A stretch of 64,000 nt of DNA from Psammoneis japonica (taxonomy: Eukaryota). The number at the start of each line of letters is the position of its first letter. Position 1 is the stretch's first letter. The notes under the pieces were generated by a model. The model did no database searches and was not told where the DNA came from. It was given only the letters and a program-made list of their open reading frames with translations. Of the stretch, positions 1 through 36,629 are shown in pieces. The stretch covers positions 1 to 64,000 of the forward strand of contig QPGO01000183.1 in the NCBI GenBank assembly GCA_008632985.1. Direction: 5' to 3'. The translations under genes were made by a program, and so were the position numbers.

Positions 1-244
1 GATCACTGTCGACGCGCAAAACTCTGTGCAGTTCTGCATGTTCCTTCACACGTGCCCACACTGTTCCGCCAAAACCGTGCAGTGTCAGTGCACGTTGGTG
101 AAGAGCCGCATGGACGCGTGATGCATGGGGAGGAGTGCAACATGCAGCTGCCAATGAGAGCCAATGTGTCACGGCGACGTGTTGCAGCCTTTAAATGTCA
201 CAAAGGGTGTGACAAAAACAACCTTTTGTCTGCATGCATGCTGC

Positions 245-2860
245 ACAATGGGCCATTGGCTCAGCTTGCCCAGCCAAACTTCAGGTCAGGACCACTTGCA
301 GGACTGTTGGAATGGTGACGGGGTAATTTGTTTGCCAAGCTTCAGGTCAAAACCACTTGCAGGACTGTCGGGATGGTGAGGGGGTGATTTGTTTGCATGT
401 CGACCTCAGGCGTGCAGCCACCGTGGGTCAACAGGCAAGATCCAAAGCTGCGCGCCCTGGAAAAAGCAACAAAAGTCAACAACGGGCCATTGGCTCAGCT
501 TGCCCAGCCAAACTTCAGGTCAAAACCACTTGCAGGACTGTTGGGAGGGTGACGGGGTGATTTGTTTGTGTGTCGACCTCAGACATGCAGCCATGGTTGG
601 TCAACAGGCCACATCTGAAGCCGCGCGCCCTGGAAAAAGCAGCAAAAGTCAACAACGGGCCATTGGCTCAGCTTGCCCAGCCAAACTTCAGGTCAAAACC
701 ACTTGCAGGACTGTTGGGAGGGTGACGGGGTGATTTGTTTGCGTGTCAACCTCAGGCAAGCAGCCATTGTGGGTCCGTGGGCAAGATCTGAAGCCGCGCA
801 CCCCAGGAAAAAGCAGCAAAAGTCAACAACGGGCCATTGGCTCAGCTTGCCCAGCCAAATTTCAGGTCAAAACCACTTGCAGGACTGTTGGGAAGGTGAG
901 GGGGTGATTTGTTTGCATGTCGACCTCAGGCGTGCAGCCGCTGTGGGTCAACAGGCCAGATCTGAAGCTGCGCGCCCAGGAAAAAGCAACAAAAGTCAAC
1001 AACGGGCCATTGGCTCAGCTTGCCCAGCCACGTTTCAGGTCAAAACCACTTGCAGGACTGTTGGGAAGGTGAGGGGGTGATTTGTTTGCATGACAACCTC
1101 AGGCATGCAGCCATTGTGGGTCAACAGGCCAGATCTGAACACGCGCACCCTGGAAAAAGCAACAAAAGTCAACAACGGGCCATTGGGTCAGCTTGCCCAG
1201 CCAAGTTTCAGGTCAAAACCACTTGCGCGACTGTTGGGAAGGTGAGGGGGTGATTTGTTTGCATGTCGACCTCAGGCATGCTGCCATTGTGGGTCAACAG
1301 GTCAGATCTGAAGCCTCGCGCCCTGGAAAAAACAACAAAAGTCAACAACGGGCCATTGGCTCAGCTGGCCCAGCCAAGTTTCAGGTCAAAACCACTTGCG
1401 GGACTGTTGGGAAGGTGAGAGAGTGATTTTCTTGCGTGCCAACCTGAGGCGTGCATCCGCCGTTGGTCAACAGGCCAGATCTGAAGCCGCGCGTCCTGGA
1501 AAAAGCAGCAAAAGTCAACAACGGGCCATTGGCTCAGCTTGCCCTGCCACATTTCAGGTCAAAACCACTTGCAGGTCTGTTGGGAGGGTGAGGGGGTGAT
1601 TTGTTTGCATGCCGACCTCAGGCAAGCAGCCATTGTGGGTCAACAGGCCACATCTGAAGCTGCGCGCCCTGAAAAAAAAACAACAAAAGTCAACAACGGG
1701 CCATTGGCTAAGCTTGCCCAGCCAAGTTTCAGGTCAAAACCACTTGCGGGACTGTTGGGAAGGTGAGAGAGTGATTTTCTTGCGTGCCAACCTGAGGCGT
1801 GCATCCGCCGTTGGTCAACAGGCCAGATCTGAAGCCGCGCACCCTGGAAAAAGCAGCAAAAGTCAACAACGGGCCATTGGCTCAGCTTGCCCTGCCACAT
1901 TTCAGGTCAAAACCACTTGCAGGTCTGTTGGGAGGGTGAGGGGGTGATTTGTTTGCATGTCGACCTCAGGCATGCAGCCACTGTGGGTCAATGGGCAAGA
2001 TCTGAAGCTGCGCACCCTGGAAAAAACAAAATCAAAAGCATGCTCAGCTGCCAGAATCAGTCAAAACCCTTGCAGACTGTTGGGAAGGTGAGGGGGTGAT
2101 TTGTTTGCATGTCGACCTCAGGCGTGCAGCCGTTGTGGGTCAACAGGCTAGATCTGAAGCTGGGCACCCTGGGAAAAGCAACAAAAGTCAACAACGGGCC
2201 ATTGGCTCAGCTTGCCCAGCCAAATTTCAGGTCAAAACCACTTGCAGGACTGTTGGGAGGGTGACGGGGTGATTTGTTTGCATGTCGACCTCAGACATGC
2301 AGCCATTGTGGTCAACAGGCCAGATCTGAAGCCGCGCGCCCTGGAAAAAGCAACAAAAGTCAACAACGGGCCATTGGCTCAGCTTGCCCAGCCAAGTTTC
2401 AGGTCAAAACCACTTGCGGGACTGTTGGGAAGGTGAGGGGGTGATTTGTTTGCATGTCGACCTCAGGCATGCAGCCATTGTGGGTCAACAGGCCACATCT
2501 GAAGCCGCGCACCCTGGAAAAAGCAACAAAAGTCAACAACGGGCCATTGGCTCAGCTTGCCCAGCCAAATTTCAGGTCAAAACCACTTGCAGGACTGTTG
2601 GGAAGGTGAGGGGGTGATTTGTTTGCATGTCGACCTCAGGCATGCAGCCATTGTGGGTCAACAGGTCAGATCTGAAGCCGTGCGCTCTGGAAAAAGCAAC
2701 AAAAGTTAACAACGGGCCATTGGCTCAGCTTGCCCAGCCAAATTTCATGTCAAAACCACTTGCAGGACTGTTGGGAAGGTGAGGGGTGATTTGTTTGCAT
2801 GTCGACCTCAGGCGTGCAGCCATTGTGGGTCAACAGGCCAGAACTGAAGCAGCGCGCCCT
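245..2860 (+). repeat. 173-bp tandem satellite array, left segment (~15 monomers)
   Basis: Monomer GGGCCATTGGCTCAGCTTGCCCAGCCAAATTTCAGGTCAAAACCACTTGCAGG...AAAAGTCAACAAC recurs; equivalent ORF starts are 173 bp apart (1020/1193). The consensus has no TA dinucleotide. Confidence 0.97.
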
Positions 2861-3291
2861 TCCCTGTGTGTGTGCTGGGCGCTGAAAAAGAAGATGTGTT
2901 GCGACTTTGTCGTTGTGAAAATTGTGAGCCAGTTTAGAGCAGAGAAAATGGGATCGTGCGAATGGGGAATCTTGCCAAATCCCCATTCGTTCGCATTTGG
3001 ATCGCATCAAATCGATCGTGCGCTCGCACTGTGGATCGTGCGAATCAAGCCATCACGCACCATGCACGAGTGATGTCATCGTGTGGAATCACGCTGCCAT
3101 TGTGGGCCAGACGACGAGCCAGTGTGCTTTGCACGGATGCTCTCTCAGCATCCTTCTGGAATTGCCCAAGACCTGGAGCCACGCCCTCCTGTGGTCGTGC
3201 TTCCCAGGTGCGTGTCAACAATGCTGCGTTGCCACGCACAAGAGGCTCATGCACGGTCTCGCCTGGTTGTCCAGCAGCGAGGCACACTGCA
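2861..3291 (-). repeat. gypsy 3' LTR
   Basis: Aligns with 7251-7686; starts TG on the minus strand right after the PPT. Its distal end appears a few bases short. Confidence 0.9.
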
Positions 3292-3299
3292 CACTCCCC

Positions 3300-4980
3300 C
3301 ATGATCAGGGCTGTCAAGTGACAGGATGTCTTGCTGGTGACAGGGTGCAATCTGCTGCAGATTGTGCACATCTGTCAGCGCTCCGTTCTGGACACGCAAC
3401 GCGCCATTGTCATGTGCACGGACAACTCTGGCGGGTCCTTCACAGCTGTCAGAACCGCATTTAGAGGATTGTTCCTGTTTGACAAGCACCAACAGCCCTG
3501 CGTCACATTGATGCTCCTTGCGTTTCTGATTTTCACGCTTGTTGTTTAAGTTGACAAGCTTCTGCTTTCTGGTTTCCATGCACTTCCACTTGGCACGATG
3601 GGCAACAGATGAAACCACATCGCGTCCGAAGACCAATTGCATGGGACTTGCATGCGTGGTCGCAGGCCCCATGCACCGCAGCTCTGGTGTCGAAGGCCAC
3701 TGCGGAGAGGATGCCACTCCATGGGTCATCTTCGTCCAGCTCCATGTCCTGCACTGAAAAGGAACGTACCATGTTACCAAGTGTCTGGTGCACACGTTCC
3801 ACTGTGGCATTCGCCTGTGGATTCCGTTCACTTGTGGGTTTCTTCAAAATCCCACAGTCATTTTTAATCATCTGGCTAAATTCTGCCATAAATTCTGTCC
3901 CACGGTCACAAACCACCTGGGTTGGCCACGGACATCTGCACAGCCACGTTTGTTCCACGACGTTTGCTGCGATGTCTGCGCGTTTCGTAGACACTTCTTC
4001 AATCTCGAACCACCCGGTTGCTGGGTCAATCATTGTGACTGCCCACAATTGCAAAGTGTCCTTTCCGCGTCTTTGAATTTTGTGTGGCCCCATCATGTCC
4101 ATGCATGGAGTCTCCCATGGAATTATCTCTGCGATCTTTTCTGGCAGCTTCCCATGATGCTGCGTTCGGCGTTTTGTCTTCTGGCATCGATCGCTCTCAA
4201 TGCACGTAGAATGCACCGTAGACCTCATGCCAGGCCAGCAGAAGTGCTGGGCAATGGACATTTCCGCACGTGTCTCACCTGGATGACACAGTGTCTCGTG
4301 GTGCCATTCAGTTGGCGGAACCTGCAATGACTGTGGTGCTGCGATTTTGTCTTTATGACAGATCAACTGTCGTGATGACCCTCCCCCACGATGTGCGCGA
4401 ATGGAGCAGTCAGACGAGTCCTTGGCTCGTGAGAGCAGGCGCTTGTCCTTTTGTTGTGCCTTTTGAATGCGCTTGAAGCTAATGGGCAGAGATGCCTCAT
4501 CTTGCGCATCTGCATTAAATGCTTCATGCAAAGGACGACTCGATGGAGTGTCTTTTGCATCCGGATTGGCCTCGGAAGGCAAGCTGGGTGCCAGCCGAAG
4601 GCAACTAAGAGCGTCAGCGACTGGGTTGTGGGTGCCCTTAACATGGCGTAATTCGGGACCGCATTCTTTGCATGTCAACCGCCAGCGCATGACGCGCTCG
4701 GTGTTGAACACTTTGCACGTAAGATTTTTATGATCAGTGTGCACAATTGTGCGATGACCAAGGAGAATCGTTCGAAATTCTTTCAACGTCTCCACAATGG
4801 CGAGCAATTCTCTCTCCGTTGTTGCACAATTTAATTGCGCACTGTTGAGCTTTCTGCTGTAAAAGGCGATGGGTTTATCATCTTGGGATGTGGCTGCTCC
4901 CAATTGACATTTAGAGGCATTGGCATGTATCTCAAAGGGTTCATTAAAATCAGGATGTGATGACAAAACATCATCCGACA
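3300..4980 (-). pseudogene. pol: gypsy pol RNase H + integrase, frameshifted near the 3' end, Tyr-depleted
   Basis: Motifs FYSRKLNSAQ..TERELLAIVETLKEFR, TDHKNL, NPVADALS, HHETLCHPG, IDPATGW, CDRGTEF, NPQANATVERVH. The C-terminal SPMQLVFGRD is in another frame. Confidence 0.92.
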
Positions 4981-4999
4981 TGGTTGGGGTTGGGGTTTG
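4981..4999 (-). repeat. 19-bp telomere-like insertion in gypsy pol
   Basis: Minus strand CAAACCCCAACCCCAACCA; removing it restores the in-frame reading ETVKRV-M-SDDVL. Confidence 0.7.
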
Positions 5000-5335
5000 T
5001 CACCCGTTTGACGGTTTCGAACGCCTCGTCTTCAACGGATGTCCACTCCCACTTGACGGTCTCACTTGCGAGTCGTGTTGGCGGAGCCAAGACTTCAGAA
5101 CGTCTAATCCACGTGTCACGGTGGCAGTTCACCATGCCAATGAATGAGCGCAGGTCGCGTTTGTTGGTTGGGGTCGCGATTCGCTTAATGGCGTCGACTT
5201 CATTGGGTGTTGGTGGCATTCCGTCTCTGTTGACCAGATGACCCAAGTGTTCTAATTGGGTTTGACAGAAATGAGATTTAGTTGCGTTAACTTTTAGTCC
5301 TGCTTTCTGGACCCTCAATGAAACTTCTTCAAGTT
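5000..5335 (-). pseudogene. pol: gypsy RT C-terminal remnant; the RT core is deleted
   Basis: KAGLKVNATKSHF..LEHLGH, LRSFIGMVN, RRSEVLAP, WEWT. Upstream it joins directly to EPHHAR, with no YxDD region present. Confidence 0.85.
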
Positions 5336-7191
5336 TGACGAGCGTGGTGTGGTTCTACACCCTCCTTGAGTTGGACATGGCAGGGTTCTCCCTTCCATTC
5401 TCCTGACATCCCATCAAATGAGGACTCATGGCGTTTCAACAGTGCCAAAAGGTCGTTTTGTTGAACTGCAGAAAGTCCCAATGCCCCTCGCGTTGTGTCC
5501 TTGAGGCAGGCCGGCGCGTGCTTGGCGTCTGAAATGCACGAAATCCGGTCGGTTTCCAAAGACAAGGCTTCTGGATCTTGAAGATAGAAGGAGGTTTCTA
5601 CCGTAGCATCTGCGTGCCTCATTGGCACTTCTCCATTGACTGATGGCCACTCCATCATCTGTTCAGAGAAGACAACATCAATGCCTTGTGTCTCCAGAAT
5701 GTCACGTCCAACAATCACATCGTGCTTGCCCAACTTTCCATTGTGCGCGTGGACGGCATGTTTAAGTTCTGCAGTTTCGGACAATTCTGGCAACCGAAAT
5801 TTAACGGTGCAGTCGTCAGACGCACTGAACGAGCCTGCTGCCGTGGTCCAGTTTGTCTCAGCCGTTGAATGGCTTCGCAGACGTATGCAGCATCGACTGT
5901 CGAGTGGAGTGCTGCTGGCGCCACTGTCCAGCAGTGCCTTGATGGTTTGAGTCTTGCCCTTGCCATGTTCAGTGTTCACAGCTGCAAACAAGATTGGAGT
6001 GAGATGAGTCTTTTTAACTCGTTTGCGGGATTGGCCCACAACACGTGTACAATGGCAATTCAGTTGTTCATTTGTGCATTCATCCAATGTGTTGAAACTG
6101 CCTGCATCGTGTCGGCAAGTGTCCGAATCTTCGGAATCACTTGGGTTGAGGTCGCGGAAGTGATTGAGCTCCTCCTCGCGTGCCTTGCGCTTTTTCTGAG
6201 CGTTGGCAAAGAACTCCTCGACCTTCGATCCGATGAGAGCATTGATGTCTTCCTCATTCCGAGGTTTTGCATTGGGCTTGCTGCCTCCGTCATTGGAATG
6301 TCCAGTCTTGACACGTTTCACGTGGTGCTTGAGCTGACGGCAATCCTCCGTATGATGTCCACAGTTAGTCCCGTGCAGCACACACGACTTCTGGGTGTTC
6401 CGTTGGGTCGTGATCAACGACTCAGGATTGTCCGTTCTATGTCCCCGCTCACGTGGAACCTTGGTGTGTTGGTCCAGGTTACCTTCGGCAAGCTCGACCT
6501 GCTCGATGCGCTTGCAGAACTGTGCAAATTCGGCGATGGCATGCGCCAACGGGTCAAAATTCTGTAGCGTCATGAACTTCTGCCATGCGTTCGGCACACC
6601 GCACTCGAACATGTCGCACAGTTCATCATTGGGTGGTGGTGCCGGTGCTTCTCCATCCTCCATCACGGGTGGAAACTGAGAGACATGGCCGTTAATTTCA
6701 ACAGCCCTCGCGACGTGGTCACGAGCAGAAACCTCTGCGGGCTTGCGCATGAAGCGCCTCAGATGACGCTTCTGCAACAGCACCGCCCCATGTGGGAAGA
6801 TACTTTCCTTTAGCTTCGCGACGCATGCTGCGTACGTAGCGTTGGTTTGAGATGCCTGCTTGTCAGCGGCATCATTGAATGACGTCAGAGCATCGCCCTG
6901 TAGCAGGTCACGCACAAGGGCAAATTTCGCTGGCCCGGTCGTCATGTTTTGTCCTTCGTGCACGCGATCCACGTTGCGCAGAAAGATTGGGAGTGTCTCG
7001 CATGTAGCCACAGAAAGGTGCGGGATGCCCATCTCGTGCATTGGACCATCCGGATCAGCAGGGTTGTTACGTAGCTTGAACGTCTGGCACTCGCCCTGCT
7101 GCAGCTCTTTCTTCTCCGGCCGTGCGAACGGAATCGGCGGCTTGATCCGCTTCTTCATGGTCGTTTTGAGATTTGTCGGTCCCACCAACAT
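5329..7191 (-). pseudogene. gag: gypsy gag + aspartic protease + start of RT
   Basis: 620-aa ORF with Zn-knuckle-like CVLHG..GHHTEDC, protease LLDSGAS and IVGRD; only 2 Tyr. Confidence 0.88.
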
Positions 7192-7250
7192 TTCGTAGTT
7201 TCGTTTCTGTAGATTTCGTCACCTCGCACAACATGCGGGAGCAACATTGC

Positions 7251-7686
7251 TGTGCCCCATGCATGCACCAGGCGCTGAAAAAAGAAGATGTGTTGCAACT
7301 TTGTCGTTGTGAAAATCACGAGCTAGTTTGGAGTGGAGAAAATGGGATCGTGCGAACAGGGAATCTTGCCAAGTCCCCATTCGTTCGCATTTGGATCGCA
7401 TCAAATCAATCGTGCGTTCGCATTGTGGATCGTGCGAAATCAAGCCATCACGCGCCATGCATGAGTGATGCCATCGTGTGGAATCACGCTGCCATTGTGG
7501 GCCAGACAACGGGCTGGTGTGCTTCACACGGGTGCTCTCTTAGCATCCTTCTGGAATTGCCTGAGACCTGGAGCCATGCCCTCCTGTGGTCGTGCTTCCC
7601 AGGCACGTGTTGACAATGCTGCGTTGCCACGCACAAGAGGCTTGTGCACGGTCTCGCCGTGTTGTCCAGCAGCGAGGCATGCTGCA
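7251..7686 (-). repeat. gypsy 5' LTR
   Basis: TG...CA termini; direct repeat of 2861-3291. Confidence 0.9.
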
Positions 7687-9877
7687 CCCTGGAGAAAGCA
7701 ACAAAAGTCAACAATGGGCCATTGGCTCAGAATGCCCAGCCAAATTTCAGGTCAAAACCACTTGCGGGGCTGCGAGGAAGGTGAGGGAGCCATTTTCTTG
7801 CATGCCAACCTGAGGCGTGCATCCGTTGTTGGTCAACAGGCCAGATCTGAAGCCGCGCGCCCTGGAAAAAGCAGCAACAGTCAACAACGGGCCATTGGCT
7901 CAGCTTGCCCAGCCAAATTTCAGGTCAAAACCACTTGCAGGACTGTTGGGAGGGTGAGGGGGTGATTTGTTTGCATGTCGACCTCAGGCATGCAGCCATT
8001 GTGGGTCAACAGGCCAGATCTGAAGCTGCGCACCCTGGAAAAAGCAACAAAAGTCAACAACGGGCCATTGGCTCAGCTTGCCCAGCCAAATTTCAGGTCA
8101 AAACCACTTGCAGGACTGTTGGGAAGGTGAGGGGGTGATTTGTTTGCATGTCGACCTCAAGCATGCAGCCATTGTGGGTCAACAGGTCAGATCTGAAGCC
8201 GCGCGCCCTGGAAAAAGCAACAAAAGTCAACAACGGGCCATTGGCTCAGCTTGCCCAGCCAAATTTCAGGTCAAAACCACTTGCAGGACTGTTGGGAAGG
8301 TGAGGGGGTGATTTGTTTGCATGTCGACCTCAGGCGTGCAGCCATTGTGGGTCAACAGGCCAGATCTGAAGCTGCGCGCCCTGGAGAAAGCAACAAAAGT
8401 CAACAATGGGCCATTGGCTCAGCATGCCCAGCCAAATTTCAGGTCAAAACCACTTGCAGGACTGTTGGGAAGGTGAGGGGGTGATTTGTTTGCATGTCGA
8501 CCTCAGCATGCAGCCATTGTGGNNNNNNNNNNNNNNNNNNNNNNNNNNNNNNNNNNNNNNNNNNNNNNNNNNNNNNNNNNNNNNNNNNNNNNNNNNNNNN
8601 NNNNNNNNNNNNNNNNNNNNNNNNNNNNNNNNNNNNNNNNNNNNNNNNNNNNNNNNNNNNNNNNNNNNNNNNNNNNNNNNNNNNNNNNNNNNNNNNNNNN
8701 NNNNNNNNNNNNNNNNNNNNNNNNNNNNNNNNNNNNNNNNNNNNNNNNNNNNNNNNNNNNNNNNNNNNNNNNNNNNNNNNNNNNNNNNNNNNNNNNNNNN
8801 NNNNNNNNNNNNNNNNNNNNNNNNNNNNNNNNNNNNNNNNNNNNNNNNNNNNNNNNNNAAAGCAACAAAAGTCAACAACGGGCCATTGGCTCAGCTTTCC
8901 AGCCAAATTTCAGCTCGAAACCACTTGCAGGACTGTTGGGAAGGTGAGGGGGTGATTTGCATGCATGTCGACCTCAGGCATGCAGCCATTGTGGGTCAAA
9001 AGGCCAGATCTGCAGCCGCGCGCCCTGGAGAAAGCAACAAAAGTAAACAACGGGCCATTGGCTCAGCTGGCCCAGCCAAACCTCATGTCAAAACCACTTG
9101 CAGGACTGCTGGGAGGGTGAGGGGGTGATTTGTTTGCATGTCGACATTCAGGCATGCAGCCGTTGTGGGTCAACAGGTCAGATCTGAAGCCACGCGCCCT
9201 GGAAAAAACAACAAAAGTCAACAACGGGCCATTGGCTCAGCTTGCCCAGCCAAATCACAGGTCAAAACCACTTGCAGGACTGTTGGGAAGGTGAGAGAGT
9301 GATTTTCTTGTGCGCCAACCTGAGGCGTGCATCTGCCATTGGTCAACAGGCCAGATCTGAAGCCGCGCACCCTGGAAAAAGCAGCAAAAGTCAACAACGG
9401 GCCATTGGCTCAGCATGCCCAGCCAAATTTCAGGTCAAAACCACTTGCAGGACTGTTGGGAAGGTGAGGGGGTGATTTGTTTGCATGTCGACCTCAAGCA
9501 TGCAGCCATTGTGGGTCAACAGGTCAGATCTGAAGCCGCGCGCTCTGGAAAAAGCAACAAAAGTTAACAACGGGCCATTGGCTCAGCTTGCCCAGCCAAA
9601 TTTCATGTCAAAACCACTCGCAGGACTGTTGGGAGGGTGAGGGGGTGATTTGTTTGCATGTCGACCTCAGGCATGCAGCCACTGGTGGTCAACAGGCAAG
9701 ATCTGAAGCCGCGCACCCTGGAAAAAGCAACAAAAGTCAACAACGGGCCATTGGCTCAGCTTGCCCAGCCAAACTTCAGGTCAAAACCACTTGTGGGACT
9801 GTTGGGAAGGTGAGGCAGTGATTTTCTTGCATGCCAACCTCAGGCACACAGCCATTGTCATGGGTCAACAGGCCACA
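7687..9877 (+). repeat. 173-bp satellite array, right segment, spanning the assembly gap
   Basis: The same monomer resumes in register after the TSD; equivalent ORF starts at 7905/8078/8251. Confidence 0.96.
8523..8858. other. assembly gap (336 N) inside the satellite
   Basis: Run of N with satellite on both sides, so the true array length is unknown. Confidence 1.
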
Positions 9878-10227
9878 CAGGAAATGGGAACCCCCCAAGA
9901 TGATGATCATCATGAGGGACCCTTTTGTCAGGCCATGCCGGCTCTCCCCACATCCTTCCACCACATCTTGCAGAGGGGTTGTTTCTCAACTTGAGGGTTT
10001 TCCATTGCAGCTGCAACATCTCGGGGTGTCTCCATGTCGGTGCACCACCCTTGACCAGTTGTCCCGTGACATCACAATGCAATGTCCAACATTCTTTGTC
10101 CGTGTGATGTCAACCTCATGTTGTGACATCAGATTGCATCCTCATGACAGAATGACGTCACAACATGATGTCAGTTTTCTGCCTCCGCAATGAACTGATC
10201 TAGCTCGACCAGGTGACTGTGCTGGTT

Positions 10228-10413
10228 TGAACAAATGCTGACACACTGTCATGGACACAGGCAGTGTAAGTGCTGTTGGCAATTGGTCCACTCTGTTGCT
10301 CAATTGGTGGCCCCGGTGGCACAACATCTCACAATTCTAGAACCTGTTGATGCTGTTCAACACTCTGTCTTGTCTTGCACCCAATTCTCAGCTGTCATGG
10401 CAGCATTTGTTCA
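10228..10413 (+). repeat. copia 5' LTR
   Basis: Aligns with 16109-16292. Confidence 0.92.
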
Positions 10414-10426
10414 CTTTGTCAGAGCC
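10414..10426 (+). promoter_or_regulatory. probable primer-binding site (initiator tRNA-Met type), mutated
   Basis: CTTTGTCAGAGCC directly after the 5' LTR resembles the common copia PBS TGGTATCAGAGCC, with TA->TG. Confidence 0.55.
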
Positions 10427-10879
10427 AACGCACCATGATGTTCATCGCCTGGAATGGGCATCGCGAACGGTGCGACGGCATCATTGCGATCAATCGATTT
10501 TTGCGGCAAGCGCCATGTTGGTCCCATGGTTGCTCGCGCAATCGCTGAGTCCTTTGCATGTGTCAACATTCATGGATGTGAACGACATGCTCTTGGAGAC
10601 CAGAGCTGTGATCCGTCAGACATGACGTTGGCACACGAAATGTTTGATCACGTGGATGGAACATGTTGGCTAAGACATGCAAACATTCGTGACAAAGACA
10701 ACATGATGATTTGTGCATTGAGGTCTGTCATTTGATCACACACATTTCATTGGTCAAAATGCGTTGTCAAATTGTTCAGACACTGTGCATGTGGACACAT
10801 GTCTGTTGGACATCATTGCTTGGGGGTGACACCGAAACGAGAACCACACATTTTTCTCACTTTCCTCCACTCACACAAG

Positions 10880-12340
10880 TGGATGCTCATGCGTCGAAAC
10901 GCGAACAACCATTGACACACCATGGCCACTGCTGCAGCCTTTACCGCCTGTCTTGCGCATTGTGGATGCAATGCACAGACGCGTGCCTGCACAGCCCACC
11001 AAGGCTTTGCTGTGATCGAGGACCTGGAACAGGTCCCTTTGACAGAAATTGCCGACATGACTGAGGGTGTTATGAAGAGCGTGGATGCCGCCACCAACCC
11101 CCAAGTCCACTTTCCACACCTGGCGAATCGCAAGCTCAAGGCACTGCGCGCATGGATTGACTGCCGCAGAGCTCGGAATCAAGAGCCGACCGCTGCTCTC
11201 TTCGCTGGCGACGTCATTGGAACGTGGACGGCACGTCTGACGGAACTGGAGCAATTCAAGTCCGCCGACTTGGACGACGAATCGGCTGCCAAAATGGCCG
11301 TGGAGCTCAAGAACCTGTACGACTGGCCCACCTTCCAAGAGCTGCTGGAGGCCGAGCTGCGTCACCACCACAGTGCCGTCACCGGAGTGCCCCTCATCCA
11401 CCCAATTCGGGAACATGAAGATGTCACCGCCGAGATGTTGGCTGCCACCCACACTGCCATTGACGAGGACCTTGTTGCCACTGCCCGCCTTGCAGGAGCT
11501 CAGCATGCAGGACAGGCAACGACTGCATGATCTCTTGAAGAAGCCAGTGATGGGGGGGCCCGGATGGGCTTTTGTCAAACCTTCCAATCGCAATCGCGAT
11601 GGTCGCACTGCCTTCTTCACACTTGAGAGGCAGGCAGAGGGATCGGCTGCCGCCACCACCAGGAAGAACCGTGCTTGCGCACAGATTGCTGCCGCGAAGT
11701 GCACCGGACGGGGTCGATTTACCTTTGACCAGTGCATTCAGCGTCATCAAATGGCTCACAATGACTTGTCTGAGCTGGACAAACCGGCAGCCGAGACCAA
11801 GAAGGTCTCTGACTTTCTGAAGGGTGTCTCCGACCCCAGGTTGGAAACTGGCAAGAGCACAGTGGATGGAGACCCAAGAAGCTAGCGGATTTCGAGGCAT
11901 GCCAGCAGTGTGTGAAAACTCTGGTCGAGAATGCCAAGAACCGCAACGCTGACACTCGCGGGATTGCATCCGTCCAATGCCGCAACAATCGGCGTGCCAA
12001 CCCTGGTGGGAAGCACCAACCTAAGAAGGACAAGCCCAGGATCCGGGCAGGCCATTGTCCCATTGAAGAGTGGAGTGCTCTTGACGGTCCCGAACGAGAG
12101 CAAGTCCAAAAGCTCCGCGATGCCAAGAAGGCCAAAAAAAAGTGCAAAGCTGCTGCTGCGTCCTCGGAGGCTGAGTCGGTCAATGCTGAAACTCGCGCTG
12201 TGAAGAAAGCAGCCATTGCCGAGCCCACTGCTCAACCTGCTGATGCACCAAAAGACTCCAAAGAGCCTGGTGAACCTGCCGCCAATGCAGGCACCCAGTT
12301 CGGTCGCAGTGCGCATGAGAAACCTCAGAAGGAGGACTGA
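10880..12340 (+). pseudogene. gag: copia gag, broken by frameshifts
   Basis: Consecutive ORF pieces (10922-11530, ~11520-11885, 11912-12340) with CoDi-gag-like motifs GVPLIHPIR, RDGRTAF, KKVSDFLKGVSDPRL. Confidence 0.75.
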
Positions 12341-12403
12341 ACAGTTGCGCCAGCACCAAAAGGCACAGAACCGAATGTTGCTAAACCTGCTGGCACCATT
12401 TGT

Positions 12404-15400
12404 TTGTCTGGGCGATTCTCAAAGGACACACGTGTCTCTTTGTCATCTGCTGGAAATTCAGATGACGAAGCCACCACTGATTTGGACTCGCACGCTGACA
12501 CGTGTGCTGTTGGGTCCAATTTTGTGATGTGCTCTGACATCGACAGAACTGTCGTGGTGCACCCCTGCTCCGAAGAGCATGCACCAATGGAAAACATTCC
12601 TATTTGCACGGCTGCCACCGTGTGGGTTGATCCAACTGATGGACAACCACACCTGCTGCCAGTCCACGAGGCTGTGTTTTTTGGGGACAAGATGACTGAC
12701 ACCCTCCTGTGCCCCAACCAACTGCGAGCGAATGGGCTGACCGTCCAAGACACCCCTCGCCAGTTTGATCGGACTGGCACACACTCTGTTTCTTTTCCTG
12801 ACTCGAAGATCAGGATGCCATTGCGAATGCGAGGCGTTGCTTCAGTCTTTGATTCACACAAGCCAACAAAGGAGGATCTGGAGAACCTCCCCCGGCTGGA
12901 ACTCACATCACCCCTGAGATGGGAGCCTTCTGCTGATGCCCTGGCGCAAAAGGAGGAAGCGCATGAATGTGCCAGTGTGCGCCAAGGATCAGCAAAGTCG
13001 GGCGGACGGTCGACGATGATGAATGTCGGATGGCACGCCAGAAATGGCAGAAGGCCAGACCAAGGAGATCTGCAAGGAATGCAGGATGCACCAGGAGGTG
13101 TCCACCCCACACAGCCCCTGGCAGAACCTGGCCGAGGCATCCATTCGTGAGTTGAAGAAAAGAGTCCGTGTGACTCTACGCCGGACTGGCGCTCACAGGC
13201 GACTTTGGTCCCACAGCGCCAAATGGATGTGTGACATCCGACGCATGATTGCAACTGGCACATCGGACATGGGAGGACGAGTCCCAGAAGAGGAGGTGAC
13301 AGGTTCGACACCCGACATCTCTTCCCTCTCTCTCTTTGATTGGCATCAACCTGTTTGTAGCTGCATGCCTGTGGCGGAGTTCCCACAAGAAAAGAAGTGC
13401 ATTGGCCGTTGGCTCGGAGTGGCTGACAACTGCACTGACGATGTGGCATTCATCATTTTGCCCGAATCAGGCAAACCCATCATTCGGAAGGATGTGTGGG
13501 CCATGCCGGAGGATGACCTTAAAACTCCGGCGATCCAGACGGATCTTGCATCAGTCGATCAAGCTTTGATTGAGCGGCTTGGCATCCCGGAAAAGGACAC
13601 CAGTGCTGACTTCCCTGAACTCCCTGACGACTTCATGGACGAATGGGACGATGCCATTGAACCGTGGAACCCGACGCTTCCAAACCGGAAGCTGATGAGC
13701 ACACCCCGGAAGGGCCAGATGAATGTCTCACAGCTCAAGTCATGTTGCCACGAGGAGGCGAGCTGACTCATGCTAGGGTCATTGCACGCAAGCGAGATGG
13801 CGACGGGGTTCCTGTTGGCACTAGGAACGACAACCCTGTCCTGGACTTGAGGATGTACGACGTGGAGTTCCCTGATGGATCCACTGATTCCTGCACTGCC
13901 AACGTAATTGCAGAGAACCTGTTCGCTCAGATCGACTCTGAAGGGAATGCCTGCCAGATCATGAAGGAAATGGTCGATCACCGATGTGATGCCCATGCCA
14001 CAACGGCCGATGACGGGTGCACAACGACTAAGACTGGCAGGCGTGCTCCCAGGAGGACGACTGCAGGCTGGGACCTGCAAGTCGAATGGAAGGATGGGAC
14101 TGCATCATGGGTTCCTCTCAAGGATTTGAAGGAGTCCAATCCAGTCGAGGTTGCTGAGTGCGCTGCAGCAAACAAAGCTGCCAGTGAACCAGCCTTCAAC
14201 TGGTGGGTCCGAGACGTCTTGCATCGCAGGTCAAGGATCCTGAAGAAAGTCAAGTCGCGTCACTGGAAACACACGCATGAGTTCGGAATTGAACTCCCGA
14301 AATCTGTCAAGGAAGCCATGGAGATGGACAACAGAACGGGGACCGACTTCTGGTTCAAAGCCATCGAGAAGGAAATGCGCAACGTCATGCCTGCGTTCGA
14401 ATTCCGCGATGACGACACTGTGCCGGTCGGGTGCAAACACATTGACTGTCATGTGATCTTCGACATTAAGAGCACCCTCCAACGTAAAGCGAGGTTCATG
14501 GCCAGAGGCCATCAAACCGATCCACCCAAGGAATCGACATGTTCCAGCGTGGTGTCGCGTGACAGCGTTAGGGTGGCATTCAGTGTGGCAGCCCTGAATG
14601 ACCTGGAGGTCCTGAGCGCTGACGTTCAGAATGCCTGTTTGAATGCACACACTAAGGAAAAGTGTTGCACCACTGCTGGCCTGGAATTTGGGAAGCAGAA
14701 CAAAGGAAGGCCGGTGATCATTGTCCGTGCCTTGCATGGTCTCAAGTCTTCAGGTGCAAGATTTAGGGAACACCTGGCAGCTGCTCTGCGTGACGCTGGG
14801 TTTGAGTCTTGCAAAGATGGCCCGGACATCTGGATGCAAGCTGCGGTTAAGCCGGATGGCTTCAGGCACTGGGAATGTGTGCTTGTCTGTGTGGACGACT
14901 TGTTGTGCGTCTCCCATGAACCTCAGAAGGTCATGGACCACATGAGCTCCAGGCACACGCTCAAGGACGGAAGCATCTGCGAGCCGGAAGAGTGCTTGGG
15001 CGCCCAGATTAGAAAGCACCAGCTGTCTGACTCGGATGGTGAGACACGCTGGGACATGTCCTCTGACCTTCATGTCAAAAGGGCATTAGCTGACGTTGAA
15101 TTGGAGCTTAAGAAAACTGACAGGCGTCTTCCGACGAAGGCGTCGACACCCTTGAGCTCGGGACATGGGCCTGAACTGGACGGTTCACCTGAGTTGAACG
15201 CCAAAACGGCTGACTGCTGTCAAGGCCTTGTCGGTGTGCTGCGGTGGGTGGTTGAACTGGGGCGAGTGGACATTTTTGTCACTGTCTCGCTCATGTCCTC
15301 CTGCTTGGTGGCACCACGAGTTGGACACCTGGACGAGGTGCTCCATGTCTTTGCATGCTTGAAGGCTCATTCTAAGTCTGCACCAGTGTTTGACAACACT

Positions 15401-15904
15401 GAGCCCATCTTTGACGAGAGTCGCTTCACCAAGTGTGATTGGGAAGAACATCACCCTGGCGCGGCTGAACCAATGCCGCCAAACATGCCGGAGGCACGCG
15501 GGAATGGCGTGACTGCCACTTGCTTTGTCGATGCTGATCACGCCGGATGCCGTGTGATGCGCAGGTCCCACACTGGGATCCTGATCTTCATCCAACGAGC
15601 ACCCATCTTGCATTGCTCTAAGCGGCAGAATGCTGTAGAGTCCTCCACTTTTGCGTCGGAGTTTGTGGCCATGAAGACTGCAGTGGAGCAAATTGAAGCC
15701 TTGTGTTGCAAGCTTCGGATGCTCGGAATCCCCATGGATGGGGCCACTGACGTTTTCTGTGACAATGAAGCTGTCTTCAAGAACTCAACTAAACCAGAGT
15801 CCACTTTGAAGAAGAAGCACAATGCAATTGCCTGTCACAGGACTCGTGAGGCACAAGCCGCTGGAACAGCGCGCATTGCTTGGGAAGACGGACGCACCAA
15901 CTGA
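12404..15904 (+). pseudogene. pol: copia pol (PR, partial IN, RT, RNase H), frameshifted and Tyr-depleted
   Basis: LDSHADTC (PR), PHSPWQNLAE (IN), RKARF, DVQNACL, ALHGLKSSG, CVDDLL (RT), FVDADHAG, CDNEAV, KKKHNAIACH (RNase H). Confidence 0.93.
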
Positions 15905-16108
15905 GTTGTTGCCTGGACCAAAGCTCCGGGAAATCACAAGTCACATCCTGTGGCAAGTCCCAAAAGGGGACAAACTGAACGGGTTTGCCGCGCAGGTGCG
16001 GCTTTTTCCCACCCCCAAAACACAACTGCTGCCCTGGAACAGGGCAGCATCAGGTTGCATTTGTCTGTCGATCTGACCCGAGTGGAGCTAGTGTCAGTTC
16101 GAGGGGAC

Positions 16109-16292
16109 TGAACAAATGCTGATGTGCTGTCATGGATGTAGGCAGTTTAAGTGCCAAAGGCGATTGGTCCACTGTCGCTCAATTGGTGGCCCCGGTGGCA
16201 TGACATCTCACAACTCTAGAACCTGTTGATGCTGTTCAACACTCTGTCTTGTCTCACACCCAATTCTCAGCCATCATGGTGGCATTTATTCA
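16109..16292 (+). repeat. copia 3' LTR
   Basis: Follows the PPT; ends ATTTATTCA. Confidence 0.92.
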
Positions 16293-16601
16293 GGTTTCCC
16301 TTGGGACTCAAACCCCCATTTCCCGGGTTTGAATCTGTCATTGCGCAAGTCACATGCGTGCATTTTCTCACAAGCAGAGACAGTGGAGAGAAATGGCTCC
16401 ACTGTTTTGCCATCCAGCAACAACTGCCGTGCTGCATTTTTGATCGAGCACTGCAACAACTGCTCCTTTGCCCCGGGCACCACACGGCCGATGGTCGCTG
16501 TCGAACAAGCTGCTTTTGTTCATGCAAACAACAAACAAACATTCAACCATCACCACTGCTGTGTGAAATCAGGACTGTTCATCCTGTCTTTTTCCCTGGC
16601 G

Positions 16602-17080
16602 TCACTCTTTCTGCAAGTTTTCGTCACCGCAAGGAATGCAGCATGCCGCTGGTCTCCGTTCATTTTTGCCACATTCAGTCTTGCACTCTTTGCACTTCAA
16701 ACCAAAAAGCTCCCACAACGTGTCACACAAACGGAGCTGCAACAGCAGGGTGTGATCATGTTCCTTGCAAGTTGCGTGGCTTTTCAGGTGTTGCTTTTCC
16801 TTGCATCCGCAACAACTGAAGCACAGGAGCTGATCATCACCCGTCCTGGAAGAGCATGTCTCGTGCAAAATTTGTCCACATTTGTTGCAAGGCACTCCGT
16901 TGCTTGCCCGTTCCCCGCACAGGTGGCATTCCAACTCCTCTGTTTCATCTGACAAAACCATGTTTGCCTTTTTGTCTTCCACTCTTTTCCAACAAGCTTT
17001 CGCCAATTCCTCATTGATGTTTTCCTCCGGTTCCCATGACTTTTCTCTGGTCAACCAAAGGACGTGGCATGTCCGATCAC
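16602..17080 (-). pseudogene. decayed chromodomain + PHD-finger-like gene fragment
   Basis: RTCHVLWLTREKSWEPEENI resembles the chromo motif Y.V.W...sWEP.eNl, followed by CHLC..CNKC..HETC..CFSC (C4HC3 spacing). Confidence 0.55.
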
Positions 17081-17910
17081 AATGTCAGCTTCCAAACGCA
17101 CACTGCGATTTCAAATGCACCCACCTGTGTTTCCTGCCATTGCAGCATCTGTCCTTGACGTGGTTGTGTTTTCCTCTGTTGAAGTGTCTGCCCTTGATGT
17201 GTTTGTAAGATCAAGGCTGACAACTGACACCTGTGTCTGATGAAATGAATTCGTCATTGTGTTTTCGACTTTTGATCGCTTTTTGTGCTTGGACACAATT
17301 GCAAAGTCACGGTTGCATGTTCTCATTGCACAGTTTTTGAATTGCATTTAGTTTCATTCTTTTCTGTGTTTTTCATTGTTTCAATCAAGCATCAATGTTC
17401 TCAAATGAACATTGACAACCATGTCGACCTGTTGTGTTAAGAACATTGTTCTTTCCTCCCATTTGAAACAAAATTTTCCTCAAATGAAAATTGGGTTTTC
17501 ATTGGTTCACTTTTGAATGTGTGATTTTCCACAATTGAAATTTGAGTTTTCATGTGTGTTCTTTTTTAAAGTGCTTGCTTCATCTACGTTGTTGAATGAA
17601 ATGCATTGTGCAATCACACAATTGGGTGGGAGGACGTGCGCGTGCGCGTGCTGCTCTTTCAGCGTGTGGAACATGCATGGGGCCCTGCATGCAGGGCTTG
17701 TCTGCAAATGTGCAGTGCAGCAGAATGCACGTGTTTTGCGCTTTCGGCGATTGAGAGCACATTTGCTGCTCCACCTCATTTTCACAAATCCTCTGCGCTG
17801 TGCAAGCCCCCTTTTGTCCATCAACAGAACTGCGATCCCTCCCCCTTTTTCCATCCAATCATCTTTTGGGCCTCTTCTTGAATCTTGCATCTTGCTCTTT
17901 TGCGCATTGA

Positions 17911-18800
17911 ATGATCCCAAACGACACCATGGATGACATGGCAAACAATTGGGGGTGCAGTTTGGTTGCCGTTAGCCCGCGTGGCTTAAAATGCAATGGC
18001 GAAGAATTGATGAATTCTTCCATGGACATCAGCCATCACAAGCAGTTAGAAGAAGTTGTTTTTCGTCACTTTGATGGCGAATTCCTGCTGTACAAAGTGA
18101 CACCAAACGGCTCCGATGCAAATCTGTTTGCAGTTAATTCTGTGACGGGAGGGCACAACGACGGATGTTTGATTGCATGTGGAAGTCATGTGGCCAGTGA
18201 TCATGGGCCGGTCCACTGTTGGACTGCCAGCACGTTCAGTGCAGAACATGGTCCCAGCACGGCAATGCATCCGGACAACGTGTTTAACTCTTTTACATGC
18301 AATCACACCATTGCGCTGCCGCATCACATGCCAGGCACTCTGAGCTCCGCGGAGCTCAGTGAGTGCAAAAACGATTGTCTCAACCACATTCATCTCCGTT
18401 GTTTGATGCAGGCTGTAAAGAAGGTGCCAACCACTGCATTGTTTTTAGAATTGATGCCAGCAAACAATGGCGCAACACTCAGCGACGATTTTCTAGAATC
18501 TCTCGGTCGGTTGGCTGACCACCATTCCTTTGAGATTGTTGTTGACGAAATTGTGACGGGCGGATGCAGTGGATGCATGCTGTCATGCATGGCTGAACCC
18601 AAGCATTTTGTTGATGCTGTTGCCTGTGTTGCCATGGGCAAATGGCTGCATGCTGGCACAGTTTTGGCAAAACCCAATCATTGCAATTGGTCCTGCAGCA
18701 TGACATCATCTCTTCCCAATCGTGGTGCCTCCACGGGCATGGATTGTAAAGAAATTGTCATGACATGGAAGACTGCAACTTCACAGTTCCATCTCACAGC
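17911..18800 (+). pseudogene. decayed class-III PLP aminotransferase-like sequence
   Basis: ALFLELM...LGRLADHHSFEIVVDEIVTGG.SG...AMGKW matches the class-III pattern (DE..TG.GR.G ... GK). One Tyr in the ORF; it runs into repeat sequence at ~18810. Confidence 0.55.
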
Positions 18801-19258
18801 CAAGCATTTGTGGCCCTCTTTCCCACTTCCTTGTCCCCTTTTCCCACTCCCTTCTTGGCTTCACTTTCCCTTTAGCCTTTGTTTTTGCCCTTTGCCCGCT
18901 GCCAACTGCCCGAACCCCAACCCCTTGTCAGTGTTGCAAAACATTCGATTTTGGACAAATCTGTGCTTTTGGTGGCAAAATTTTGTTCGCAAGTGAGAGA
19001 CCGAGCAAAATTTGAGCAAATGTTCATTTTTTGCACAATTTGGGTCATGCGCAGCTGGAACACGTCCCTTGGCTATTTTCCACCTTTTGTGATTTCTGCC
19101 ATTTTGCACCCTCGGGCATTTTGTGCTTTCTGAATGATTTTGTGCCTCTGGCCATTTTGTGCCCATGTTGCACCCTCAGCCATTTTGCACCCTTTGTCAC
19201 AAGCAGATGTGCTCCAGCTCCATGTGGGACCTTGTGCTGCTGGGCTGTGGCGCAATCA

Positions 19259-19700
19259 TCCAAAGCTGGCACGCCAACTTTAGATCCAAAGTCGGCATGC
19301 CAATTTTGTGCAAAGTTGGCATGCCGACTTTTGACCCAAAGTTGGCATGCCGACTTTTGACCCAAAGTTGGCATGCCGACTTTTGACCCAAAGTTGGCAT
19401 GCCGACTTTTGACCCAAAGTTGGCATGCCGACTTTTTGCCCAAAGTTGGCATGCCAAGTTTTGACCCAAAGTCAACATGCTGAGTTTTGCTCCAAAGTTG
19501 GCATGCCAAGTTTTGACCCAAAGTTGGCATGCCGACTTTTGACCCAAAGTTGGCATGCCGACTTTTGACCCAAAGTTGGCAGGCCGACTTTTGACCCAAA
19601 GTTGGCAGGCCGACTTTTGGCCCAAACGTGGCACGCCGACTTTTGACCCAAAGTTGGCACACCAAGTTTTGTGCAAAATGCCAAGTTTTGATCCAAAGTT
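19259..19700. repeat. 26-bp palindromic minisatellite, array 1
   Basis: Unit GACCCAAAGTTGGCATGCCGACTTTT; core AAAGTYGGCATGCCRACTTT is self-complementary. Confidence 0.95.
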
Positions 19701-19714
19701 TGCACACCACATCA

Positions 19715-20088
19715 GATGCATTCCAGATGTGGGTGGGAACTCTTTTGACATTGGGCCCGCAGAATTTGGCGGTGATTAAAACACCAATGATTGTCAACAG
19801 AAAATCAGGCAATTTTGCCAGTGCACAAACTCGCCCATGATTGAAGCACATCATTTTTTGCTTGGCCAGTTGCATTCTTCAGACATTGAAGAATGTGGCT
19901 GGCGCGCTGTTGTCACTCTGAATCTGTTGCATGAAACATCTGGGGCTTTGCAAAACAGCGAGTTTGGACAATTTTTTTTTGAATGTCACTCACAGAAAGG
20001 CACGTGCAAAACATGCGACGGATGACAAAAATTGTTTGTGTCACAGGCCAGTGCCACGAGCTCCCACCTGGGGCTGCTGGAGCACGTC
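19715..20088. mobile_element. MITE, GACG..TCCAG TIR family, TSD ATCA
   Basis: ATCA|GATGCATTCCAG...CTGGAGCACGTC|ATCA; also present in the duplicated units at 26450-26819 and 35446-35774. Confidence 0.8.
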
Positions 20089-20260
20089 ATCATGAAGCAG
20101 ACTCCACCTTCCCACCATTTTTTCAATTGATCCACTCAACATGACCCAGCAAGATGAGCATCCAAAGACCAAAGACACCCCAAAAACAAAACATCAAGAA
20201 AGCAAAGAATGGTTGCCAGCGGTGCTCTGCACTTCTGGGTGTTCTGCGTTTGTGCTTGCA

Positions 20261-20680
20261 GATGCGCTCCAGCTCTGGGTGGGACCTCGCACTGCTGAGC
20301 TGTGTCATTGACAGTTTTTTGGATCACACCGCATGTCACGCACGCAGAAAGGTGCGCGGCTTTTGTGAAATTTTGTGTCATTTTGTGGCACACTTGCTCA
20401 AGCAGATTGGCTTTTGTGGGCGTGCAGAGCACGGACATTTGAGCGACTCTTGACATTTTTTTCTTCTGCGCCATTCACAAATGTCTTGAGAATGGCGCAG
20501 GGCAGGTGCATTTGCAAAAACGTCAAGTGGCGATGGCCACAATTGTGCCAAAAACTTGGCCGTTTGTTTGATGTTGAAGACAAAATTGTCCATCAACTGG
20601 ATTCTTGCAATGCGGAGCTCGCACGCAGAATTCTGCGGGCCCAATGTCACAAAAAGTCCCACCTGGGACTGGAGCCTATC
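20261..20680. mobile_element. MITE, same TIR family, TSD TGCA
   Basis: TGCA|GATGCGCTCCAG...CTGGAGCCTATC|TGCA; duplicated at 26995-27386 and 35947-36335. Confidence 0.8.
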
Positions 20681-20684
20681 TGCA

Positions 20685-21080
20685 GACACGTTCCAGCCCT
20701 AGGTGGGAGCTCGCAGTGCTGACGTGTGACAACAACAATTTTTGTCATCCGTCGCATGTTTCGTGCGTAGATTTCTGCGTGTGACATTTAAAAAAAATTG
20801 TCCAGACTCGCTGTTTTGCGAAACCCCAGATGTTTTATGTGACAAATTTGTGGAAACAACAATGCGCCAGTTGCATTCTTCAATGTCTGAAGAACGCAAC
20901 TGGCCAAGTAAAAAATGATTTACTTCAATCATGTGCGAGTTTGTGCATTCGCAAAATTGCCTCATTTTCTGTTGGCGATCATTGACATTTTAATTGCCGT
21001 GTGATTTTACTGTGGAGCTCGCACGCAGAAGTCTACGGGCCCAATGTCACACGGATTCCCACCTGCGTCTGGAACGCGTC
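20685..21080. mobile_element. second MITE inserted in tandem at the same TGCA site
   Basis: TGCA|GACACGTTCCAG...CTGGAACGCGTC|TGCA; absent from copies 2 and 3 of the unit; an inverted relative of 19715-20088. Confidence 0.8.
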
Positions 21081-21589
21081 TGCATCAGAATTTAGATGCC
21101 GTCACCGTCATTGGCACCTCACAAGCAAAAATGGCGCGGGTGGCCCTTTGTTGCTTTTTGCCATTGCATCAAACACAAAACCTTGCTCAGATTGTGGCGT
21201 GATCTTGGCAGGATTCTCTGCCATGCTGCTTCAATGAGCATTTGACCACCTCTTTTGCAGCGCAGCTTTTTCACAAAATGCAACAACAACCATGTGAGGG
21301 CAGCTGCAATGACAACTCAAGTCACAAGGACAGCACAACTGCTGCCACTGCCACCACCATTGCCAACAGCTCAGGGGATGTCCAGCAAAACATTCAACGC
21401 TGTGCCGCACACTGTTGCGCCATGCACGGTCACAGACGTCAACACAAAATTTGGCAAGGTGCTCCCGGCTCATGATCTGCCAGGGAGAGGTTGCAAGATC
21501 AAAGACAGCTCCCAAAAGTCAGCTGACAATGACGCTGCAGCCAAAAAGTCCGCTGATGATGACACTGCAGAAAACACAGTGTGGACATT

Positions 21590-23947: not shown

Positions 23948-24008
23948 TGGATCGGCAACCCCTGCATGTGTGGGCACACACATGTAAAAACATTCATGTG
24001 CAACAGGT

Positions 24009-36628: not shown

Positions 36629-36629
36629 C

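Follow-up and report, generated by a model that had tools for sequence, protein, structure and literature searches.

The window analyzed here is a 64,000-nucleotide stretch of the genome of the diatom Psammoneis japonica (assembly GCA_008632985.1, contig QPGO01000183.1, positions 1 to 64,000), and it contains a Ty3/gypsy-type retrotransposon whose two long terminal repeats (LTRs) differ at many positions that read TG in one copy and CA in the other. Our data indicate that the repeat DNA of the window has very probably undergone hypermutation of TpA to TpG or CpA after insertion, and that this process is of the same kind as the one described in the chlorarachniophyte Bigelowiella natans (bioRxiv 10.64898/2026.01.13.699255; Mettrop et al. 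2026). The pattern of the changes, their polarity in coding sequence, their confinement to repeats and their timing after insertion are established by the results given below. An initial annotation of the element had proposed that the ancestral dinucleotide was TA and that it was changed on chromosomal DNA after insertion. This proposal is upheld by models of the LTR pair, by the fate of tyrosine codons, by one other copy of the family, by the composition of the window as a whole and by the target-site duplication that flanks the element.

Sister LTRs of a single insertion

The element and its parts are listed below, with the observed/expected ratios (o/e) of TA and CG for the two LTRs.

2861-7686, minus strand: Ty3/gypsy-type LTR retrotransposon, 4826 bp
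2861..3293, minus strand: 3' LTR, with 1 TA (o/e 0.05) and 29 CG (o/e 0.89)
3536..4981, minus strand: 482-aa RNase H-integrase open reading frame (ORF), with Pfam RT_RNaseH, Integrase_H2C2 and rve
5001..5342, minus strand: C-terminal third of the reverse transcriptase (RT), homologue P0003
5329..7191, minus strand: 620-aa ORF, presumed gag and aspartic protease, ending at the start of the RT
7254..7686, minus strand: 5' LTR, with 2 TA (o/e 0.09) and 27 CG (o/e 0.84)
2857..2860: left target-site duplication CCCT, the final bases of the interrupted satellite unit
7687..7690: right target-site duplication CCCT, after which the satellite picks up in phase

The element belongs to Ty3/gypsy, as it has direct LTRs and a target duplication and carries, on the minus strand, the RT tail followed by RNase H and then integrase. 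This copy is defective because the RT core is absent and the match to aspartic protease in the 620-aa ORF is weak (E 0.014). The core is missing upstream of the RT segment, where residues 1-90 of P0003, which lie inside RVT_1, have no match in the element, and at position 5337 the contigs of other family copies continue with unlike sequence. The RNase H-integrase ORF loses its frame near residue 440, and the LTR terminus at the 2861 end is not a clean TG...CA. BLAST gave no other copies of the element within the 64-kb window, where only its own LTRs match.

The element interrupts an array of a 173-bp satellite. The left flank ends in ...GCGCGCCCT and the right flank starts with CCCTGGAGAAAGC. 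Eight intact satellite junctions (GCGCGCCCTGGAAAAAGC), used for comparison, follow the pattern GCGC(G/A)CCCTG(G/A)AAAAA, and five of the eight read exactly ...CCCTGGAAAAAGC. Because 4 bp (CCCT) were duplicated and the 173-bp phase of the satellite was preserved across the element, the two LTRs are sisters from one insertion. In a single insertion the two LTRs derive from a common template and start out identical, and with the target duplication intact, the differences between them must therefore have arisen after integration.

The LTR pair was first found by BLAST as a match of 420 bp at 90.2% identity, and global alignment extended it to 2861-3293 against 7254-7686 (435 columns with 2 one-base gaps). 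There are 48 ungapped mismatches, 28 of which lie in 14 TG/CA doublets (13 clean doublets and 1 within a TGT/CAC run). The other differences are 3 single sites with TA against CA or TG, 6-7 single sites with CG against CA or TG, 6 other transitions, 2 transversions at the LTR ends and 1 TG/GT run. Common to both LTRs are 24 CG, 41 TG, 28 CA and no TA. When the 48 substitutions were re-placed randomly on bases of the same kind, TG/CA doublets averaged 0.92 and reached a maximum of 6 in 20,000 trials, versus the 14 observed. Doublets of this type also occur beyond the LTR pair; across 11 further repeat pairs in the window TG/CA accounted for 75 of 121 adjacent double mismatches, and the second-ranked type for 7. 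The initial annotation had counted more than ten TG/CA positions, which was an undercount because four doublets (2865-2877) sit in a stretch that BLAST left unaligned. Its quoted examples GCCCAAG/GCCTGAG, GGTGCG/GGCACG and CTCATG/CTTGTG were located at 3167, 3209 and 3248, and its three sites that keep TA in one LTR were found exactly as described (CA 2930/TA 7324, TA 2935-6/TG 7329-30 and CA 3146/TA 7541).

The doublet sites might instead have been CG at insertion, with decay of methylated CpG by deamination on opposite strands in the two LTRs. This explanation draws on the depletion of CG in the same repeat domains (o/e 0.11-0.85 versus ~1.0 in the host-gene islands of the window) and on the satellite, which varies chiefly among CG, CA and TG. 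The LTR pair itself does not fit it. With 24 intact CpG (o/e of CG in the LTRs 0.84-0.89) and 7 half-decayed CpG, the probability of change is 0.127 per copy, and 0.26 doublets are predicted versus 14 seen; the model would also demand ~44 ancestral CG and at most 3 TA in 433 bp, where host islands show a CG o/e of ~1.0 and a TA o/e of ~0.56. If the sites were TA, the 3 singles and 14 doublets give a probability of 0.95 per copy and ~31 ancestral TA sites, with 0.08 TA expected to remain common to both LTRs and 0 observed. CpG decay moreover gives no account of the low TA o/e (0.00-0.28) across the repeat domains, or of the replacement of tyrosine by histidine or cysteine with arginine mostly retained, both of which are described below. 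It was rejected as the source of the doublets in this LTR pair, and as a general explanation we consider it very improbable. It is nevertheless a real second process in the family; the initial annotation had itself allowed that some CG/CA and CG/TG differences could be ordinary CpG decay. Judged by the LTR pair, TpA changed ~22 times faster per site than CpG and ~130 times faster than other bases. The 48 mismatches break down into 31 from TpA, 7 from CpG and ~10 others, and LTR-divergence dating in such genomes overestimates age, here about five-fold (48 mismatches versus the ~10 that are neither TpA- nor CpG-derived), which agrees with the earlier warning that dates would come out too old.

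Coding-sequence polarity and extent of the depletion

The direction of change could be read from conserved tyrosine codons. The RNase H-integrase ORF was aligned with its 60 best homologues, and tyrosine columns were defined as those conserved at >=70%. Of the 12 such columns, five are His and five are Cys in the gypsy ORF; a single one still reads Tyr, and the remaining one, in the frameshifted tail, reads Ala. The ORF retains conserved Arg in 17 of 21 columns. Its overall Tyr content is 0.2%, versus a mean of 4.05% in 120 homologues. A second retroelement of the window was read in the same manner:

13661-15901, plus strand: copia-type (RVT_2) ORF, an unbroken frame of 747 aa

In this ORF, whose named relative is from Fragilaria, the 24 conserved Tyr columns hold Cys in 14, His in 7, Tyr in 1 and Phe in 2, and 384 of 457 conserved columns (84%) are unchanged, including all of the Phe (16/16), His (12/12), Cys (5/5) and Asn (14/14) columns. 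In this copia element, TpA hypermutation is the dominant damage and came earlier than frameshifts. Gypsy and copia combined, 31 of the 36 conserved Tyr (TAY) columns now carry His (CAY) or Cys (TGY). In the host LCIB-type gene at 54.3-55.5 kb all 4 Tyr columns are intact, and 117 of 122 columns keep the conserved residue; the named relatives closest to this gene are from diatoms (Odontella 74%, a Bacillariaceae metagenome-assembled genome 70% and Amphora 63%, together with Chaetoceros and Thalassiosira).

One environmental homologue of the RNase H-integrase ORF, P0085, has 0.9% Tyr against the mean of 4.05% in the 120 homologues, with His and Cys raised, and the same process may be acting in the organism that it comes from.

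The depletion of TA divides the window into two kinds of DNA. The TA o/e of the window is 0.19 overall and sharply bimodal; it is <0.3 in 50 of the 64 1-kb windows and >=0.4 in the other 14, with none between. The corresponding regions are as follows.

1..42100: TpA-depleted repeat domain holding the element, with TA o/e 0.00-0.28 and TG and CA 1.2-2.1 per 1-kb window
1..2860: 173-bp satellite (346-bp higher-order period), the insertion target, with TA o/e 0.03 and CG o/e 0.46; the array begins near base 235, and the first ~230 bases are unconfirmed as satellite
7691..9857: 173-bp satellite, continued, with an N gap at 8523-8858 (336 N)
~42.2-49.8, 53.9-58.3 and 62.1-64 kb: normal host-gene islands, with Aa_trans, a 1469-aa ORF, LCIB and Aldedh

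Everything outside the islands is depleted, whether satellite, gypsy, copia or unclassified dispersed repeats. The domain borders (~42.1-42.3, ~49.76, ~53.92, ~58.29 and ~62.07 kb) are sharp to ~100-400 bp, and across them the spacing of TA shifts from several hundred bases to ~25 bases. Per kb, the repeat domains have 4.7 TA and 30.5 CG where the islands have 39.4 and 53.7, and 104.5 TG and 104.2 CA where the islands have 74.6 and 71.3, so that losses (57.9 per kb) and gains (62.8 per kb) roughly balance. The TA o/e and CG o/e are correlated across windows (Spearman 0.83), and TA goes before CG; the gypsy LTRs have a TA o/e of 0.07, lower than the 0.25 of the element's interior, at a CG o/e of 0.86, and the oldest-looking blocks have 0.03-0.06 for TA and 0.22-0.41 for CG. 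The satellite holds 5 TA in 3956 dinucleotides, and its variable columns are mostly CG versus CA or TG, with a few TG/CA alternations.

Sequence context has a strong effect on the loss. Retention of TA in the repeat domains relative to the islands was lowest for ATAT (0.009), followed by ATAC/GTAT (0.016), GTAC (0.047), ATAG/CTAT (0.047), ATAA/TTAT (0.076), CTAC/GTAG (0.11), GTAA/TTAC (0.12), CTAG (0.25), CTAA/TTAG (0.33) and TTAA (0.46), so that ATAT is ~50 times less retained than TTAA. A multiplicative model with one factor per half-site matched all six mixed contexts to within 0.025, and this half-site rule means that the mutator prefers RTAY and spares YTAR (R, purine; Y, pyrimidine). Product tetranucleotides favour A>G at TAY over RTA in 3 of 4 asymmetric contexts, and Tyr codons after a pyrimidine gave Cys 11 times and His 5 times, both comparisons being confounded by composition; the data lean weakly, in a way that is suggestive only, to the A before a pyrimidine (TAY) as the mutated base. 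When each doublet site was compared with the next one, the outcome (TG or CA) was equal in 38 cases and different in 55 (p=0.10), and strand-processive runs of one outcome were not seen. The outcomes are unclustered, and the sites were hit singly on either strand and not by single-strand sweeps.

These results bear on a further explanation, in which ADAR-like A-to-I editing of the element RNA before reverse transcription produced a copy that was hypermutated from birth. The preference of ADAR for a 5' U turns UA into UG, as is also stated in the Discussion of the B. natans preprint (bioRxiv 10.64898/2026.01.13.699255), and editing of this kind could add to the differences among family copies. 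The sister LTRs, however, differ at 17 TpA-derived sites despite the intact target duplication, the satellite and entire domains are depleted too, and the outcomes are not strand-coherent. ADAR favours a 3' G, and the TAG contexts are among the best retained here. RNA-level editing fixed by reverse transcription was accordingly rejected, and we regard it as extremely improbable. The same observations bear out two points of the initial annotation, namely that the change took place on DNA, independently in each LTR and on either strand, and that RNA editing before reverse transcription is argued against.

Several other features of the window were noted. An ORF at 17911-18993 (plus strand), inside the TA-depleted domain, is rich in His and Cys and has a weak match to class-III aminotransferase (E 1.3e-4, under the Pfam cut-off); it may be a piece of a host gene that ended up inside a hypermutated repeat. 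Three arrays (19260-19659, 25937-26439 and 35138-35435) consist of a tandem 26-bp unit that is palindromic in part, and they sit within a dispersed repeat family of at least 3 copies at 18.8-36.6 kb. The intron-free 1469-aa ORF (44544-48953, minus strand) is built from several modules that resemble one another and contain Cys, together with a linker rich in Pro and Thr, and gave no Pfam match; it has a normal TA content and is therefore presumably a host gene. Among the genes recognized in the 64-kb window, none encodes a deaminase.

Other family copies and the reliability of the base calls

Other copies of the family were taken from k-mer contigs of three sequencing runs, which belong to a single sample and study. 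One of them, run X1, holds 0.96 of the host-region words and gave 141 Mb of k-mer contigs of up to 315 kb. In this run, 5530 pieces lie on the element at >=80% likeness, 1190 of them at >=99%, 1471 at 95-99%, 2090 at 90-95% and 779 lower. The family varies at 398 places, of which 388 are transitions (A>G 92, T>C 94, C>T 102 and G>A 100) and 10 are transversions. A contig of a second run, X2, that covers 6121-6483 reads TA at 11 places where the copy in the window has TG or CA, and at those 11 places the X1 contigs carry TA at 0 to 89% of depth. Summed over the family contigs, the k-mer depth is 8,000-65,000 versus ~60-75 for single contigs, which suggests that the element family has hundreds of copies and that its LTRs are several-fold commoner than the interior. 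A search of metagenome contigs for an outgroup LTR, made with a degenerate motif of 20 bases from the LTR, gave 10 loci, each of which matches the motif alone.

A number of results weigh against the reading of the doublets as former TpA. The initial annotation had offered a check by the state of the family at the doublet sites, where CG instead of TA would have told against it. Only 1 of the 14 sites (3130/3131) is readable in family copies; there the other contigs have CA and not TA. At no fewer than 9 places nearly all of the family depth is CG and the window copy has TG or CA, as CpG decay predicts, and in the older repeat pairs such decay could explain ~21 of the 75 doublets (worked by hand from the counts). 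Because the host islands are mostly coding, they are a less than ideal reference for what the repeats were originally composed of. Finally, the three runs come from one study, which may be the assembly's own source, and do not amount to independent proof of the base calls.

The last point is relevant to the possibility that the pattern is an artefact of assembly or base calling, in which modified TpA in repeats (for example hydroxymethyluracil or N6-methyladenine) is misread in a strand-dependent manner. A strand-dependent miscall of the palindromic TA would yield exactly TG or CA, the modification could be limited to repeats, and no sequencing platform is recorded for the runs. On the other hand, noisy reads are unlikely to assemble into contigs as long as those of X1 or to leave so many pieces (1190 of 5530) at >=99% likeness, and TA, TG and CA coexist as alternative letters at intermediate shares in one contig set. 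The copies also bear frameshifts, a deletion and CpG decay, and reads across both LTRs would tend toward an identical call in both. In B. natans, the same signature appeared de novo in Illumina data, as reported in the main text of the preprint (bioRxiv 10.64898/2026.01.13.699255). An artefact is accordingly improbable in our judgement.

Proposed process and comparison with known systems

With hypermutation of TpA on DNA as the preferred reading, the course of events would be as follows. A defective gypsy element would have inserted once into the 173-bp satellite of a diatom genome, and after the insertion a process acting on chromosomal DNA in repeat domains would have turned nearly every TpA of the LTRs into TpG or CpA. 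The changes would be transitions from A:T to G:C, affecting either strand and made independently at each site and in each copy, so that at about half of the ancestral TA sites one LTR would now have TG and its sister CA. This process would also have removed TA from every repeat domain in the window, whether made of satellite, copia, gypsy or unclassified repeats, would halt within ~100-400 bp at the borders of the host-gene islands, and would prefer RTAY and spare YTAR, with a slower CpG decay running in the same domains. The process presumably recognizes repeats in some way, and deamination of adenine to inosine in DNA by a TadA/ADAT-like enzyme is its likeliest chemistry.

The same DNA-level hypermutation of TpA could instead have thymine as its target, through oxidation to 5-hydroxymethyluracil or 5-formyluracil, which would mispair with G and give T>C. 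Oxidised thymines are mutagenic, and because TA is self-complementary, T>C on one strand equals A>G on the other; the RTAY preference is equally symmetric. TadA-like enzymes prefer U-A-C, and the weak lean to A>G at TAY (Cys 11 versus His 5, and 3 of 4 contexts) fits such a preference but does not discriminate between the two chemistries. An ADAT2-like candidate is described in B. natans in the main text of the preprint (bioRxiv 10.64898/2026.01.13.699255). Thymine chemistry is, in our view, a real possibility but an unlikely one.

Beyond this window, we lean slightly to the view that diatoms hold a defence that resembles repeat-induced point mutation (RIP) with opposite chemistry, in which a DNA editor, probably an adenine deaminase, erases RTAY in repeat or heterochromatic DNA; the data are compatible with an erasure that is fast relative to CpG decay and ordinary substitution. 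If this is true, the presence of the process in a stramenopile and in a rhizarian would make it an old and widespread defence of the stramenopile-alveolate-rhizarian (SAR) group and not the oddity of one alga. TpA hypermutation, known from one preprint on one alga, would extend to the diatoms, which are major marine primary producers and include genetically tractable species. Sister LTRs provide a built-in clock for the process, TA o/e by itself locates repeat domains with a precision of a few hundred bases, and the RTAY preference is a concrete handle toward the enzyme. The loss of Tyr to His and Cys in the proteins of transposable elements also weakens homology searches; here RVT_2 reached just 37 bits and the protease was missed.

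The closest known system is that of B. natans. According to the main text of the preprint, 231 of 302 new mutations in mutation-accumulation lines fell in two integrated viral regions, 230 of these 231 were A>G or T>C, all 230 of them at TpA, the mutation rate was ~6e-7 per site per generation, TpA-poor coding sequences were enriched in RT and DDE domains, and the authors proposed an ADAT2-like DNA adenine deaminase (bioRxiv 10.64898/2026.01.13.699255). As there, the changes in the diatom window are almost exclusively A:T to G:C transitions (Tyr codons, TA places of the family and 388 of 398 variable places). TpA becomes TpG or CpA on either strand in both systems, as seen here in the drop of TA from 39.4 to 4.7 per kb, in the 14 doublets and in the 3 TA singles. 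Both are limited to foreign or mobile-derived regions, the host genes here being spared (bimodal map and Tyr 4/4 in LCIB), and both leave loss of TpA and gain of CpA and TpG as the long-term trace. The two differ in host, a stramenopile here and a rhizarian there, and in target, which is LTR retrotransposons, satellite and unclassified repeats here and giant-virus or virophage inserts in B. natans; a word search of the main text of the preprint gave no mention of LTR, retrotransposon, satellite or gypsy. Depletion is near saturation in the diatom (TA o/e 0.00-0.28), compared with 0.45 for the hypermutable virus insert of B. natans, and here CpG depletion co-occurs and RTAY is preferred over YTAR. 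The process was watched in mutation-accumulation lines of B. natans, whereas in the diatom its action on chromosomal DNA is reconstructed from sequence, through the differences between sister LTRs of one insertion and the involvement of a satellite.

RIP in ascomycete fungi is likewise a DNA-level, post-integration process that makes transitions in repeats with a dinucleotide preference, ruins the genes of transposable elements and inflates LTR divergence. RIP, however, converts C to T, chiefly in CpA, generates TpA and reduces GC, whereas here TpA is destroyed and GC goes up. Fungal RIP was thus rejected as the process at work, since TpA was lost and the polarity is TA to CA or TG. ADAR hyper-editing shares the A-to-G change, the preference for a 5' U/T and a target derived from repeats, but it edits RNA in strand-coherent clusters, would leave sister LTRs identical and, unlike the process seen here, would not relatively spare TAG contexts. 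Editing of LTR retrotransposons by APOBEC3-type enzymes is also deaminase-driven, context-specific and inactivating for retroelements; its substrate is the cytosine of minus-strand cDNA while reverse transcription is under way, and its product is G>A, in contrast to A:T>G:C at TpA in integrated DNA. CpG decay has the same TG and CA products in the same domains of the window but differs in its source, which is CG, and in its rate, which is ~22-fold slower per site by the LTR pair.

A literature search found no report of the TpA hypermutation signature in diatoms, and the B. natans preprint was its sole relevant match. As a category the phenomenon is not new, since that one 2026 preprint shows TpA hypermutation live in another lineage. 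What is new here is the diatom host, the retrotransposon and satellite targets, the near-saturation of the depletion and the preference for RTAY.

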